Both the position numbers and the translations under genes were made by a program. A stretch of 64,000 nucleotides of DNA from Octopus vulgaris (lineage: Eukaryota): positions 52,824,001 to 52,888,000 of the forward strand of contig OX597830.1 in the NCBI GenBank assembly GCA_951406725.2, written 5' to 3'. The notes beneath the pieces were generated by a model that saw only the letters and a program-made list of their open reading frames with translations, had not been told where the DNA came from and did no database searches. Below are positions 3,457-12,170 of this stretch, piece after piece (position 1 is the stretch's first letter; each line of letters begins with the position of its first letter).

Positions 3457-4517
3457 GTAGTAGTAGTAGTAGTAATAGTAGGTTTAGAATTTTATAAACC
3501 TTAGTTGTTTAACCCTAGGTCAGTCCTGGTTGAACAAGCTTATCATATTTCATCCAGCTATATAACCCGTTGTTCTAGTAATTTGTAGAACCATCACTCA
3601 CCTGAAATTGTCCTATTTCTAGTCTGTGTTAACTTGAGAGGAAACAGGAAATTGTTCTCAATAAAGAAATATTGACTTTTTTGTGTGTGGTTTTTGCATT
3701 CCATGAAACAATTCCATTTGTCTAAATAACATTTTGTGATTCATTTTCCTGTTAGAATGGAGGTCATATGAAAACCAGGGCACTGAGATAACAAATGTCC
3801 TCTTCAGTTGGAACATTTAAAGGCACCCATATGTATATATAAAACAAACTGGCTCTCATACTAAAGTAGAACTAAACAAACCCTTTGTTATATGTTTTTG
3901 GTAAGTATGAGTAAGGGATCATTAAAAAGAGAGAGAGAGAGAGGGTAAACAAAGAAAAAAAGCAAATATTGTGAGGTCTTTTGCTGATCACAAATGAATT
4001 ATTGCACATTGTGTTAGGTCGTGGGTTTGTTTATGATCAGCAGCTAACTCATTTTAAGTGTATTTTGATGTTTGCTTAAAATTGATTTGGGAAAAAACAA
4101 CAGACATCACAAACTGGTTCTCCAAAGAAATATCTAGTGGAAGACGATGGCAGTGGCAGCTGTTGAAACCTTTCCTTTGTGGTGTTGTTTTTCTTTCATA
4201 TTCTGGCAGAGGAAAGCCCTAATAAGTACCAGTAATATGCTGAGTTTAATTTACTTGATTCTGTCCTTTCCCCTAATGTGTGATATTGTACTGATGTGAA
4301 CAAAACAATTATTATGTACAATGATGTTTGTATCACTGAAGACTGTCATTGGTTGCTTTTATACAATATTTCAGTCAGTCAATGTTTGTTTTCTCTCTCT
4401 CTCTCTCTACACACATATAGTTAAATAAAATCCAGGTAAAAATCTTGTAGAATGCTATGCAATGCTCTTGCTACTTGATATACATTAGGAATTCAATAGT
4501 ATCCATAGATTATATAA

Positions 4518-4917
4518 ATAGATAAATGATAGAAAATGGGACGAATGACATTCTTTATTTAAAATCACTACAATTGTTTCAACATATTTTTACACCTTTA
4601 GTACATTGACAAGGTGTTGCGTAATCATTATCATACATTCAAGGTTTAAAATGTGACTCCTCAGGTGATTGTTTAAATAACTCCTTCATTAGATCCTTTC
4701 GTCATTTCACTCAATGATATTAGCTTTTGTGAAATGATGAGGATCTAACAAAGAACTTATTTTAAACAATCACTTGAGGAGGTGCATTTTACACCTTGGA
4801 TGTATGATAATGATTACACAACACCTTGTCAATGTACTAAAGGTGTAAAAATGTGTCAAAACAATTGTGATTTTAAATAAAGAGTGTTGTTCATTCCATT
4901 TTCTATCATTCATCTAT
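4518..4917. mobile_element. Older fold-back element of a second family, with a hammerhead
   Basis: Imperfect inverted arms at about 4518-4710 and 4728-4917. No visible similarity to 4971-5692 apart from the hammerhead core. Confidence 0.75.
4563..4670 (-). ncRNA. Type I hammerhead ribozyme
   Basis: Minus strand: AATCAC-CTGAGGA-long stem II-GAAAC-AATT-GTA-GTGATT. The plus-arm copy (4768-4872) has core mutations (TTGAGGA, AAAA). Confidence 0.7.
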
Positions 4918-4924
4918 CTATCTA

Positions 4925-4964
<40 letters not shown>

Positions 4965-5157
4965 TATATACTAAGTAATTAAGGGTTTAGCAACGATTTG
5001 CCTCACCACACACCGAATTTAGAAATAGCAGTCAAAGAGTTATAGCTATTCTTTCTACTAAAAGGGAGATCTCAGTAAAACCACAGCACTTGAAAGGCAA
5101 ACACAGACAGGCAAGAGAGAAAGAAATGACGGCAATCTATCATACAATTTTAAGTCA

Positions 5158-5248
5158 CCTACGGACGTACGTTTCGAAATTAAGTTTTAGGAAAGCATAA
5201 GAATTAGATAATTATGTCTTACCCAACTTCTTTTCTCATCAGCGTAGG
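5158..5248 (-). ncRNA. Type I hammerhead ribozyme (inverted copy)
   Basis: Reverse complement of 5313-5403 with the core intact. Confidence 0.85.
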
Positions 5249-5312
5249 ACACTTGAGATGATGTCTTCTAGTACCTCGAAATTTAATATACAATTATTCA
5301 TAATTGTAGTGC

Positions 5313-5403
5313 CCTACGCTGATGAGAAAAGAAGTTGGGTAAGACATAATTATCTAATTCTTATGCTTTCCTAAAACTTAATTTCGAAACGTACGTCCGT
5401 AGG
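5313..5403 (+). ncRNA. Type I hammerhead ribozyme (minimal palindromic stem III)
   Basis: Stem I CCTACG/CGTAGG, core CTGATGA (5319-5325), long stem II GAAA..AAGTT/AACTT..TTTC, then GAAAC-GTAC-GTC. Predicted cleavage after C5397. Confidence 0.85.
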
Positions 5404-6324
5404 TGACTTAAAATTGTATGATAGATTGCCGCCATTTCTTTCTCTCTTGCCTGTCTGTGTTTGCCTTTCAAGTGCTGTGGTTTTACTGAGATCTCCTTTT
5501 AGTAGAAAGAATAGCTATAACTCTTTGACTGCTATTTCTAAATTCGGTGTGTGGTGAGGCAAATCGTTGCTAAACCCTTAATTACTTAGTATTACTTAAA
5601 CTTTCCTCGAATGAGGCTTTTACATGCCGAAATCTACTTGGTGAAATTAATGATTATTCCAAATTAATTAATTTCACCCTATATTATTACTGATAAAATA
5701 TTATATAGATAGACATATATAGGCTAGTATCTGTTGTGCTAAAAGATGAAAATATTGTAAGTGAAATGTGCCAACTGCTTATTGTATGTATGTATGATTG
5801 ATTGATTGATTCTAGTTTCAGCTTATGAGCTGTGGCCATGCTGGGGCACCGCCATTTGTGTATTGGAAAACGGATGTTAATGATGATGTATTAATATTAA
5901 TGTAAATATTGGTATTAATATTAGTATGTATGAAGGCAGCAAGCTAGCTGAATCATTAGCACATTGAGTAAAATGCTTAGCCGCAGTTCTTCTGATTCTG
6001 CTTTGAGTTCAAATCCTACCGTGGTCAATAAAGTATTAGTCAAGTATATAGGAGTCAATATAATTGACTTGCCCACCTCCATAAAATTGCTGGCCTTGTG
6101 CCAAAATTTGAAATAAATTTTAGTATGTGATTTGTATTAATATTATCATTGGTGTATGTATCAATGTTAGTGTGTTTATCAGTATGTATGTCTATATTGG
6201 GATGAATATATTATTTTTGGTTCCTGGAGTTGGAGTCTAATTTCTCAGAAAATATCTACTGCTAGAAATATTGTTTCATGTATGACTTGTTTTGATTTAT
6301 ACCGATTATTTTTTACCATTTCAG

Positions 6325-7767
6325 AATCCAAAGTCCTCAGCACCAAATAAAAATATCAACAGTTTTACTGTAACCAAAGAAAAGCAAAAGACTGTCACAC
6401 CACATACTGCACAAACTAAGGTCTCTGGTGGTGGTAATAATAATAATAATAACAACAACAACAATTGTAATAATAGCAACAGCAAAGATGATATTTTTAA
6501 ACAGCCTTTGCCTGTTATGGAAGCTTCTTCTTTGGATAAGTTTCACAATGTAGTTTTGGTTAATACTTTACATCAGAACAAGCCACAATTTAACACACCC
6601 AGAGCCCAATTTCAGGAATTTACTAAGCATGTGCCAACTGTTCCTGCAAAATCTTTCATAAATAACCTATCATCATCTTCAGGAACTGGATCATATGCAA
6701 AATATATAGATCTCTCCAAAAGAAATCCAGGTTCCGACAAAAGTAATGTTAGTCTTGGCAGAAGCAATTTAGGTCTCAATAAAAGTAATGGTTTTACCTC
6801 AACTGTTGTGGCATCTAGCACTTCCTTAGATGATGGAGCATCAAGCTCTTCCTCAAAGAAGGGAACATGTAGCTTTTCCTCTTTTGTGACATCAGGCTCT
6901 ACCTCAACTGTTGAAGTTTCAAGCTCTTCTTCAAAGAGTGTGACATCTAATACTTCCTTAAATGGTGGAGCATCTAGCTCTTCCTCAAATGGATTTACTG
7001 GAATAAAGTATTCATCATGTTTCTCAGAAAAAAGCAAAAATTTTCCTGTTTATATTGATTTGAACAATTCAAAACAAGACTGGAATTCTTCTAAAGTTCC
7101 AGAAAATTGCAAGAATATTAGCAAAAGGACAAATAATTCACGAGAACACTCCTCAAAAGATCAAGAAATCAAATTACAAACAAAAGCAAATTCTTCATGC
7201 TCCAACTTAACTTCAATCAAACCTTTCGAGACGCCACTAACTTTCAAATATTCAAATAAAAAATTCACAAATTTCGCCATTAAAGAAATCACCAATATGA
7301 CAGTAATTCCTAATGTCTGTGATACGTCATTGAATAAAAGTTCAAGAAATATCACACCAAATGTAAATAAAGACTGTTCACTCAGTAAATCAATGAAAGC
7401 CACACCACCTTTATGTAAATGTGGTTGCCGCTCAATGTTGCGCCTCTGCCAAAAGCCAGGTCTCAATATGGGACGGCATTTTTACACTTGCCCCTTGAAG
7501 ACAAGATCGAAAAGTAAAAGGAAAAGTGGGAACCCAGTTGAACCTTGTAATTTTTTCCAGTGGGAATCACCAGTGTCCCTCCATTCTTCATTTCGTTCTT
7601 CACCATTTTCTTCTTCCTCTATTTCCAACCGTTCTCTCAACATGTCTTCAACTACACGAAATCTTTCGTTTGCCAAAACTGCCAATCTTTCCACTGGTGA
7701 GACATCACAAACACCTAAGTTCACAAAACAGACAATACGACCATGTCAGCTTATTCCCTACAAATAA
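6325..7767 (+). CDS. ERI2: ERI2 terminal exon: long Ser/Asn-rich linker and GRF-type zinc finger
   Basis: Acceptor ccatttcag|AAT in phase 0 within the 491-aa ORF. Contains TPPLCKCG...GLNMGRHFYTCP...CNFFQWE (zf-GRF), the C-terminal architecture of ERI2. Confidence 0.88.
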   Translation, partial: NPKSSAPNKNINSFTVTKEKQKTVTPHTAQTKVSGGGNNNNNNNNNNCNNSNSKDDIFKQPLPVMEASSLDKFHNVVLVNTLHQNKPQFNTPRAQFQEFTKHVPTVPAKSFINNLSSSSGTGSYAKYIDLSKRNPGSDKSNVSLGRSNLGLNKSNGFTSTVVASSTSLDDGASSSSSKKGTCSFSSFVTSGSTSTVEVSSSSSKSVTSNTSLNGGASSSSSNGFTGIKYSSCFSEKSKNFPVYIDLNNSKQDWNSSKVPENCKNISKRTNNSREHSSKDQEIKLQTKANSSCSNLTSIKPFETPLTFKYSNKKFTNFAIKEITNMTVIPNVCDTSLNKSSRNITPNVNKDCSLSKSMKATPPLCKCGCRSMLRLCQKPGLNMGRHFYTCPLKTRSKSKRKSGNPVEPCNFFQWESPVSLHSSFRSSPFSSSSISNRSLNMSSTTRNLSFAKTANLSTGETSQTPKFTKQTIRPCQLIPYK

Positions 7768-8360: not shown

Positions 8361-9630
8361 ATGAGCGAAGATGACTCAATAGTAAAAAATAAAAGTGAAT
8401 ACTGTCCTATAAAAGGCAGAAATAAAGCACTTGATGCTTTTTGTGAACACATTACTAGTTTTCCTTTTAGTACCCTACAAAAACAACAAATTAAATCCAA
8501 CCTCAATGCAATGAATAGAAAGACCTAATCAAGTTTAAAAATGATATAAACCTGACCATTAAAGAAGCCGACAAAGGAAGTGCGGTAGTGGTGATGGACA
8601 CAGAGTACTACAAAAATTTCCATGTTGGAAAATAATATTTACTATGAGAAGATAGTACAATACAACCCACAGAAGACACTTAAAAACTTATCCTCCTTAC
8701 TTCAAATACATGGAAAGGGTCTCACTAAGCATGAAATAGACTATCCAATTTTAAATAAACCTAGTCTATTCTACGGATTATCTAAAATACACAAAAATCC
8801 ACATATTTGTAAAGCCTGCAAAGTTTCTCCAAGCCTATGCATTAATGTTCCCCCCCCTACTGACCTCAAACTGAGACCCATCATTGCTGGCCCTGCTTGT
8901 GAAGCCTACCATTTGAGCAACTTCCTCGACATCTTACTCAAACTGTTTCTAGAATATGTGAAAAGCTTCATCGGGGATGACTTGTACATGCTGAACCACC
9001 TCCCGAAGACAGTAAAGAAAGCAACCCTGTTAGTATTATTTGATGTGGTGAATTTGTACACCAATATCCCATGGTATAGAAGCAATAACCTTCTGGCTAG
9101 AAAAATACCCAGAAGAAATCCCAGGATGCATTAACCACAGGTTCATAATTGCAGCACTCAAATTCATCCTACTGAACAACTATTCAGTTTACTCTCAACA
9201 AAAATGTGGAATTGCAATGGGAACCCGAGCTGCTCCAGTGATTGCGAACCTTGTAATAGGTTACCTAGAGCTTAAGTTATATCAATCATCACTACAAAAA
9301 TATGGCATCTCATTTCATTGCTATTTAAAGGAGAACTGGAAGAGGTATTTGGACAATTGCTTTATACTTTGGAAAGACAGCATGGACAAACTCCTCGATT
9401 TCAAAATAATGCTTAGCAATATACAATTCACCATGGAGCACAGCAGTAAACAACTCCCTTTTCTTGACATCCTAATCAAAATAGTCAATAACCACATCGA
9501 AACAGACATCTTCTAAACAATACCTATTATTCAGCTCATGCCACCCCAAATACATAAAAATGAATATACCTTATAATCTAGCGAAAAGATTTTGTACCAT
9601 AGTTTTGGACACCTATACTCGTGAACAAAT
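8361..9630 (+). mobile_element. Penelope-like element, decayed reverse transcriptase
   Basis: Motifs IKEADKGSAVVVMD, FYGLSKIHK, LRPII, FDVVNLYTNIP, MGTRAAPVIANL, RYLDNCF, IQFTME..LPFLD, with frameshifts. Confidence 0.9.
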
Positions 9631-10479: not shown

Positions 10480-12170
10480 TCATATTTCTTCTATTATTTC
10501 CATTCAAACATATCATTATGTTCATTATAAAGTCAGTTATGATTATATTTGTTGTTAAAAAAAATTAATTGTTGCATTAAATAAATGTTTGTTTTTGCAT
10601 AATTAGCATTTTTATTAGACCTACCTAAAAACTTAGGACGGTAAAAATTATGCCTATTAACAAAAATGGCCATTGTTTCTTTATGTATTGGTGAATCAAA
10701 TTTATTTTGGTACAGTACATGTAGATGGGTGTTATTATGTAGTGGGAAAATATCTAGATTCAAACGGATAAATATTCTGTTATTGTGAAAAAACTGAACT
10801 GCCTAATAATTTGACAGGCAGCGTTTGGCATTGTTAGGACCTGTTTTTGTTGTTGATGAGCTTTTATTCCTATTTGCAACCATTCCATCACTGTTTATTA
10901 TGTTATGAGCTGTGGTTTTTCCATAGGCCCCCCCCCTACTGAGTTTTATGTTATTTAGTTTGTGTATATAGGCGCAGGAGTGGCTGTGTGGTAAGTAGCT
11001 TGCTAACCAACCACATGGTTCCGGGTTCAGTCCCACTGCGTGGCATCTTGGGCAAGTGTCTTCTGCTATAGCCCCAGGCCGACCAATGCCTTGTAGGTGG
11101 ATTTGGTAGACGGAAACTGAAAGAAGCCTGTCGTATATATGTATATATATATGTATGCGTGTGTGTCTGTGTTTGTCCCCCTAGCATTGCTTGACAACCA
11201 ATGCTGGTGTGTTTACGTCCCCGTCACTTAGCAGTTCGGCAAAAAGAGACTGATAGAATAAGTACTGGGCTTACAAAGAATAAGTCCCGGAGTCGATTTG
11301 CTCGACTAAAGGCGGTGCTCCAGCATGGCCGCAGTCAAATGACTGAAACAAGTAAAAGATAAAGAAGATAGTATTCTAGATTGTGAGAGATCACATATAC
11401 TAATTTTACATTATACCTGATGTTGTGATATTTGGAAGATTTGGGGGAGTGCCTATCTAACTCTGAGAAGAATTCCTGACCTATTTTGGATTCTATTTGA
11501 GAATTGAAAACTGGGTTAAACCAAATAATTTTATCACTTATGTTCCCATTTCTTTTAATATATCTATTGGGTTTGCTACTGTATTTCATTTTATCTCTTT
11601 CTACTGTCTTTTTACTATTTCTTTCTGGTCCCTTTCTTTCTACCCTTGTCTGCTACTTCATGAGTTCTGTTTTATATCCTTCTTAATGTTGTGGTTCCAT
11701 TTTGGTCCCTATTATATTTACTGTTTTTCTAGGTTCTGGTATTCTGTGGTTATTTACAGGATTATCTCTAATATTAATAACACTCCCTGGGTATTAAGCC
11801 TTCTCTGTCCTATTCTGTATATATACTATTCTATCCTTATGTCCTGCCCTAGCTAGTGCTGCGATGTGATATTCAGCATGCATGTTGAATATCCATTTGT
11901 CCGCGGATAGCCTGGATATTCTATTATACATGCTTCTCAGGATGCTTCATAGTATATGTTCTGGATGGTTAGATCTGTGGTTCACATATTTTAAGTTTTT
12001 GTTTGGCTTATGGGACAGTTTGAACTTTCCATCGTTGAGGCTAAGCTTTATGTCCAGGAATTTTACAACTCTGATTTTTTTCCTGTTTCTATTTCTTATC
12101 CAAAATTCTTAAAAAGTTTTGTCTTACATCTTTCTATTTCTACATTACTACTTTTTTGTACTGTAAATAA
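10480..12170 (-). mobile_element. Decayed PLE fragment interrupted by a SINE
   Basis: IIWFNPVFNSQIESKIGQEFF.ELDRH.P....YHNI...VKLVY resembles the PLE post-RT linker (IIWFNPP...NIGK.FL..IDKHFP). Boundaries are approximate. Confidence 0.55.
10971..11365 (+). mobile_element. Full-length tRNA-derived CORE-like SINE (other copies at about 998-1690, 24750-25040(-), 28335-28680, 40500-40860(-))
   Basis: A/B-box-like head TGGCTGTGTGGTAAG..GGTTCAGTCCC, CTTGGGCAAGT core, internal microsatellite, tail GCATGGCCGCAGTCAAATGACTGAAACAAGTAAAAGA. Multicopy in the window. Confidence 0.85.

Follow-up and report, generated by a model that had tools for sequence, protein, structure and literature searches.

The locus described here raises the question of whether a nearly perfect palindrome with a hammerhead ribozyme motif on each strand represents a functional design or a by-product of the way in which it was inserted. 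In the window (the whole analyzed stretch of 64,000 nt from Octopus vulgaris, contig OX597830.1), the element spans positions 4956-5707, target duplication copies included. It comprises two arms (4968-5253 and 5308-5592) that align over 286 columns with 3 differences (2 substitutions and 1 indel) and are separated by 54 nt (5254-5307), in agreement with a preliminary description (~285-bp arms, about 3 differences, ~54-bp spacer). That description also placed the element within an ERI2 intron and reported no ORF, and both statements hold: exons of an ERI2-like gene were found at 819-911 and from about 6325, and no frame of at least 80 aa overlaps the element in an open reading frame check. The nearest protein found for this host gene comes from Argonauta hians and has RNase_T and GRF domains; its exons map upstream, at 819-911, and in the frame 6286-7767. 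The corresponding features, both on the + strand, are an upstream exon (819-911) and the last coding exon, encoding the GRF zinc finger (6325-7767, start approximate).

A pattern scan of the whole 64-kb window identified 2 type I hammerhead motifs, one in the direct arm (5313-5403, + strand, core at 5319) and one in the inverted arm (5158-5248, - strand, core at 5242), so that the earlier claim of one such motif per arm is confirmed. Each motif consists of a 6-bp stem I, the CUGAUGA core, a 60-nt stem II, GAAA, and a 2-bp stem III with a palindromic GUAC loop; the predicted cut site follows C5397, and the 8-mer around the loop is self-complementary (computed duplex energy -9.8 kcal/mol). A hammerhead search, named earlier as a check, was positive by pattern scan and negative with the Rfam family Hammerhead_1 (RF00163), which had no match to the window element at the gathering threshold or with E-values up to 5. 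The motif had been regarded as a minimal hammerhead with an unusually long stem II; the length stands, but the class does not. Minimal hammerheads of Penelope-like elements (PLEs), the min-HHR, have no helix III and a helix I of 4-5 bp (PMC4209133; this and the other papers are cited from the parts accessible to us), and we rejected this class because the window motif has a 6-bp helix I and a 2-bp helix III with the GUAC loop. Judged by its sequence, the motif is of the canonical metazoan type, which is expected to act as a dimer (Cervera and de la Pena 2014, PMC4209133). Stem II measures 54-77 nt across several families, and hammerheads with stems of this length escape both Rfam and short-stem patterns; a genome pattern search for a short-stem-II version of the window hammerhead with the same stem III gave 0 matches. 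Compared with shuffled sequences, stem II folds with a z-score of -2.6 in its commonest form (between -0.9 and -3.8 in the others), and the hammerhead region alone folds modestly better (z -1.9). Another hammerhead-like motif, in the tail of the element (about 5606-5632), was rejected, as it is not conserved in sister families.

When the genome (2.80 Gb) was searched with positions 5300-5710, the 40 of 3288 candidates that were scored were 96-98% identical. Exact patterns occurred genome-wide at least 259 times for the hammerhead core, at least 670 times for a short 3' end (S) and 162 times for a tailed 3' end (T) running into TA, with 0 matches for the controls in all three cases; the 162 matches correspond to at least about 130 distinct ones, because reverse matches are listed twice. 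The family unit is 583 bp long and carries one hammerhead, on one strand. In head-to-tail copies, which reach three units, the tailed end runs directly into unit position 1 with no ORF, and at four loci (L010, L023, L098 and L103) tandem units carry consecutive hammerheads, whereas the window copy has one per strand. When a natural unit is doubled, its longest stop-free frames reach 48 and 69 aa, and the RT plus GIY-YIG ORF of autonomous PLEs is absent from the window element and from the family unit. The earlier view of a young, non-autonomous element of the PLE/retrozyme type is borne out. Folded as a circle, the natural unit has a z-score of -4.8 against 30 doublet shuffles. Three contigs from one public sequencing run (X12), conceivably of RNA, cross the tail-to-unit-start junction, as contigs from DNA also would. 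In the contigs of four public runs, examined for an empty site, the assembly is highly fragmented and none of the listed pieces covers the insertion.

Of 80 family loci taken, 13 were dropped as duplicates and 67 were analyzed, with inverted copies at 39/67 and non-inverted copies at 28/67. Their outward 3' ends cluster at unit positions ~479 (S, window 5592) and ~582 (T, window 5696), 104 nt apart, and 102/106 of them adjoin TA-rich sequence. Most targets are pure TA, the 15-bp duplication having been measured in the window copy. Two loci (L094 and L095) are identical copies 2734 bp apart in one long TA array, which reflects either a recent local duplication or a duplication in the assembly. 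ORF-less sister families (C, D and one further; loci L074:470-860, L153-L182, L198, L200 and L251) have periods of 549-604 bp and a common tail domain (about 70-80% identity in the tail), and keep the hammerhead core with altered stems. In family C, stem II is 54 nt long (33 nt in a natural variant), and 3/6 stem I pairs differ from the window family on both sides; the covariation that had been sought in stem I is present as a single between-family event. A helix across the unit junction is predicted from 7 sequences of 3 families (7/67 pairs double-changed, covariation term -0.56 kcal/mol), which may be taken as a hint only.

Compared with this unit, the window copy resolves into two 5'-truncated pieces, i.e. 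unit 194-479 inverted (4968-5253, - strand, ending at S) and, after a 1-nt overlap at the join, unit 139-583 direct (5254-5696, + strand, ending at T). It follows that the "54-bp spacer" simply marks the difference between the two truncations and consists of normal unit sequence, and that the presence of a hammerhead on both strands is a matter of arm length. The palindrome was an incomplete description in a further respect, as it missed the 104-nt tail between the two fixed 3' ends (5593-5696, + strand), which contains an AU-rich hairpin, is unpaired with the opposite arm, and is the most conserved part among the sister families. Since unit 1-138 and a second hammerhead on the same strand are missing, the window copy is probably a dead end. 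At the element ends, the longest exact direct repeat measures 15 bp, as described before (left copy 4956-4970, at the end of a (TA)n run of about 4927-4957; right copy 5693-5707). However, its first 4 nt are equally found in the tailed end of the family, and its last 3 nt in the inverted short end, hence the target-derived part is 8-15 bp.

The young element sits in the TA run at the end of another inverted hammerhead element (4405-4924), older and unrelated but built in the same way, whose motif lies at 4563-4670 (- strand) and whose tail is on its left side; this older element has a 77-nt stem II, a palindromic stem III, a one-sided tail of ~100 nt and 842 candidates genome-wide, about 74-86% identical.

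On these grounds we consider it quite probable that the window element is a truncated member of an ORF-less hammerhead tandem family with a 583-bp unit, a non-LTR retrozyme, copied into (TA)n by the reverse transcriptase/endonuclease of a PLE, with S-primed and T-primed cDNAs joined head to head; the assignment to the non-LTR retrozymes follows from the insertion pattern, which is the known PLE pattern. Insertion by Penelope-type enzymes probably generated the mirror-image shape as a side effect.

The evidence for two priming sites comes from the way in which the ends are paired. Among the 39 inverted loci, 31 combine S with T, 2 combine S with S, 0 combine T with T, and 6 are of other kinds; 22 of the 39 came from a tail-containing query, and the remaining 17 comprise 11 S+T, 2 S+S and 4 other. 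On contigs C1-C2, for which the exact-pattern lists comprise 94 S and 20 T ends, an unbiased count gave S+T for 8/8 inverted pairs, the chance of which is 5e-5 if ends pair independently and 0.004 at best. In an unrelated autonomous PLE (727-aa frames, ~70-nt tail), 15/15 opposite-strand neighbors were S+T, 10 of them counted by script and 5 by eye, one of the latter across two stretches. The arms of one insertion diverge by 1.0% and tandem units by 1.1%, versus 3.1% for different loci, and rare variants are shared by arms at 2.5 per kb versus 0.07 per kb between loci (pairs not independent). Both arms of one insertion are one haplotype, which could also come from gene conversion between them.

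An inverted arm of the same family could instead result from one cDNA folding back on itself, or priming itself on an antisense template, with an endonuclease trim leaving the one-sided tail, as proposed in PMC3846280 and PMC8557442. This scheme predicts both the common haplotype and the one-sided tail, and it accommodates the 19/31 S+T insertions in which one arm lies inside the other, including the window copy (S arm within T arm). Furthermore, 8/78 inversion breakpoints fall at a short palindrome at unit 372-376 (window about 5486-5490), where 0.7 are expected per 5 nt, a cluster noticed after the fact. In the other 12/31, however, each arm extends beyond the other (by more than 80 nt in 11 cases), and therefore one cDNA folding back cannot make those; besides, the two ends match the two in vitro RT start sites of another PLE (PMC11167929). 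We consider the folding back of a single cDNA unlikely. The nearly strict S+T pairing in two unrelated families, the common haplotypes and the non-nested arms together favor two RNA-primed events per insertion, with each target strand primed at its own site on the RNA.

Three further explanations concern the identity of the element as such. The preliminary description had proposed a single fold-back insertion unit, and a defined fold-back element of the MITE kind, or one in which an ambisense pair of ribozymes (one hammerhead per strand) is the functional design, would fit the near-perfect arms and the target duplication of the window copy. Yet arm lengths vary in the family from 33 to about 1000 bp, the 5' breaks are variable, junctions differ locus by locus, the ends are asymmetric, the 28 loci without inversion do not fit, only 15/39 inverted loci have a hammerhead on both arms, and the unit has a single hammerhead on one strand, all of which makes such a design very improbable. 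We give similarly little credence to the unit being the pLTR of a not-yet-sampled autonomous PLE, with the short copies as its truncated insertions. Heavy 5' truncation is common in PLE insertions and few of the candidates were read (see below), but in tandems of up to three units the tailed end leads directly into unit position 1 with no ORF, the sister families repeat with comparable periods, and the sole PLE ORFs upstream of a tail domain are set apart from it by a TA run. Finally, that the inverted arm is an assembly artefact has a practically negligible probability, given arms that differ at 3 sites, ends that carry a duplicated interrupted TA target, and the same rule-bound build at all 39 inverted loci.

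Genome-wide copy analysis, another check proposed earlier, had thus yielded abundant copies with common 3' ends, but no partner: an autonomous element with sequence in common with the unit was not found among 270 loci, including three young autonomous families, this sample amounting to a few hundred of thousands of candidates. These families, detected by protein and GIY-YIG searches, have frames of about 750 aa (L061-L065), 727 aa (L123-L152, L271-L286) and 781 aa (L231, L236, L250). Pfam analysis found RVT_1 and GIY-YIG only; all three end in TA runs, and none has significant DNA similarity to the unit. We take the family with 727-aa frames to be Poseidon-like and those with about 750- and 781-aa frames to be Neptune-like. 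The 727-aa-frame PLE is very young (146 scored matches at 98-100%), and has a canonical short hammerhead and TA targeting, while in the 781-aa-frame PLE a hammerhead-like motif with a U/A core variant was read by eye. PLE fragments adjoining copies of the retrozyme family (L076, L087, L160, L184, L251) were rejected as linked ORFs; they are set apart by TA runs or TA dinucleotides, or lie downstream. The supplement of PMC8557442 lists two octopus Naiad entries with a (TA)n preference; four short unit motifs and one reverse complement had no relevant match in the accessible text of that supplement, where line breaks and cut runs limit the sensitivity.

The preferred reading, in which two cDNAs are primed at S and T, can be formulated as follows. 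Tandem loci would be transcribed, and dimeric hammerheads would cut the RNA to give unit circles, or the RNA would stay multimeric. A dimer of the PLE protein would then introduce nicks into the two target strands, spaced about 15 nt; one of them would prime at S and the other at T, each with 3-4 nt of microhomology and on RNA from one source, and two incomplete cDNAs would join head to head to produce the palindrome, the one-sided tail and the duplication. At each end, the window duplication and the element have 3-4 nt in common, the outcome that annealed priming at nicks spaced about 15 nt would leave. The 5' breaks avoid no region, and 1/78 is no more than 5 nt away from the hammerhead cut, compared with 1.5 expected; as they do not pile up there, the template was likely circular or uncleaved. 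The 39 junctions include 22 with overlap, 4 blunt and 13 with inserted bases. Inverted copies with a tail at one end have been described for PLEs (PMC3846280, PMC8557442). For the anole PLE in vitro, reverse transcription starts at two sites bounding the tail, both strands are extended, a dimer is predicted, and hammerhead cleavage is not needed (PMC11167929). However, no strand difference in start-site use was seen in bulk (Frangieh 2024, PMC11167929), and in frog retrozymes 8/9 dimers showed no cleavage in vitro (bioRxiv 10.64898/2026.07.22.740005); both results count against the preferred reading.

We would give even chances to a more specific version, in which the two target strands are obligately primed by one PLE dimer on RNA from a single source, each strand at a different fixed site and never both at the same one, and in which the octopus retrozymes constitute a long-lived clade whose circles, about 550-600 nt in size, retain a conserved RT-loading fold closed by the cross-junction helix, together with a long-stem-II hammerhead variant missed by standard models. 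If true, animal retrozymes would be tied to PLE enzymes by an insertion signature, and the formation of inverted repeats and tails in PLEs would become open to a direct test; how tandem and inverted structures and tails of PLEs arise is a stated open question (PMC8557442), for which this family provides a clean data set. The signature lends support to the proposed use of PLE enzymes by animal retrozymes. In a PLE-rich genome the element as such is nothing out of the ordinary, and its palindrome is expected rather than a new design; the worthwhile additions are the long stem II and the end-pairing data.

Among known systems, metazoan non-LTR retrozymes (PMC7229834; bioRxiv 10.64898/2026.07.22.740005) share with the family an ORF-less, AT-rich tandem unit with one type I hammerhead of the canonical type and a weak palindromic helix III, dispersed monomers, and partial tandems. 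Their target duplication is longer than 4 bp, which the 15-bp repeat of the window copy would probably match. The 583-bp unit exceeds the 170-400 nt reported in 2020 (PMC7229834), but lies within the 51-972 bp range of the 2026 preprint, and stem II has 60 nt here versus about 4 bp. In the accessible parts of these sources, non-LTR retrozymes are not said to form inverted insertions with two fixed ends, the word "inverted" occurring 0 times in the accessible text of PMC7229834, which does not mention octopus either. Insertions of EN+ PLEs (PMC3846280, PMC8557442, PMC11167929) resemble the family in partial tandems, an inverted 5'-truncated copy, a tail at one end, a (TA)n bias, and a hammerhead upstream of two 3' ends; in contrast, published tails measure 30-40 nt, versus 104 nt here, and the window family has no RT-EN ORF. 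Non-autonomous Chlamys elements such as MRC1 are likewise non-autonomous PLE derivatives with head-to-tail copies, but usually have 3' sequence in common with an autonomous family, and belong to a clade without canonical hammerheads (PMC8557442). A 2026 repeat annotation of Octopus vulgaris lists 190 Penelope-like families and, in its accessible part, no ribozymes (PMC13282606); its sequence library may contain the window family. In the literature searched, we found no description of the family and no counted pairing rule, although Repbase, Dfam, subscription papers and preprint supplements may contain the family.

A comparison can also be made with L1 twin priming. There, the second target strand primes a second cDNA, and the two are joined head to head with microhomology; the second site is variable, and the pieces have no overlap. 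In the octopus family, by contrast, the same sequence is copied into both cDNAs, from two fixed starting points separated by 104 nt.

With respect to the host gene, folding predictions for a transcript through the window copy give -531 kcal/mol for pairing of the arms versus -16 kcal/mol for the hammerhead fold; the copy is thus predicted to form, in ERI2 pre-mRNA, a 285-bp hairpin that would bury the ribozyme, and intronic cleavage is unlikely. Nor can the opposite-strand hammerheads make a dimer in one transcript, because they would pair as sense and antisense. Such insertions would put long perfect hairpins into introns, possibly creating substrates for A-to-I editing or small-RNA pathways. 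Elsewhere around the last exon, window 5810-6118 contains very high-copy short repeat pieces, probably SINE-like, with a DNA-contig depth far above that of the retrozyme, and the serine-rich part of the exon includes diverged 78-nt coding repeats (6803-6985). Downstream of the exon there are decayed PLE coding fragments at 8595-9516, a member of an abundant older PLE family, and at 11335-11652, judged by eye.
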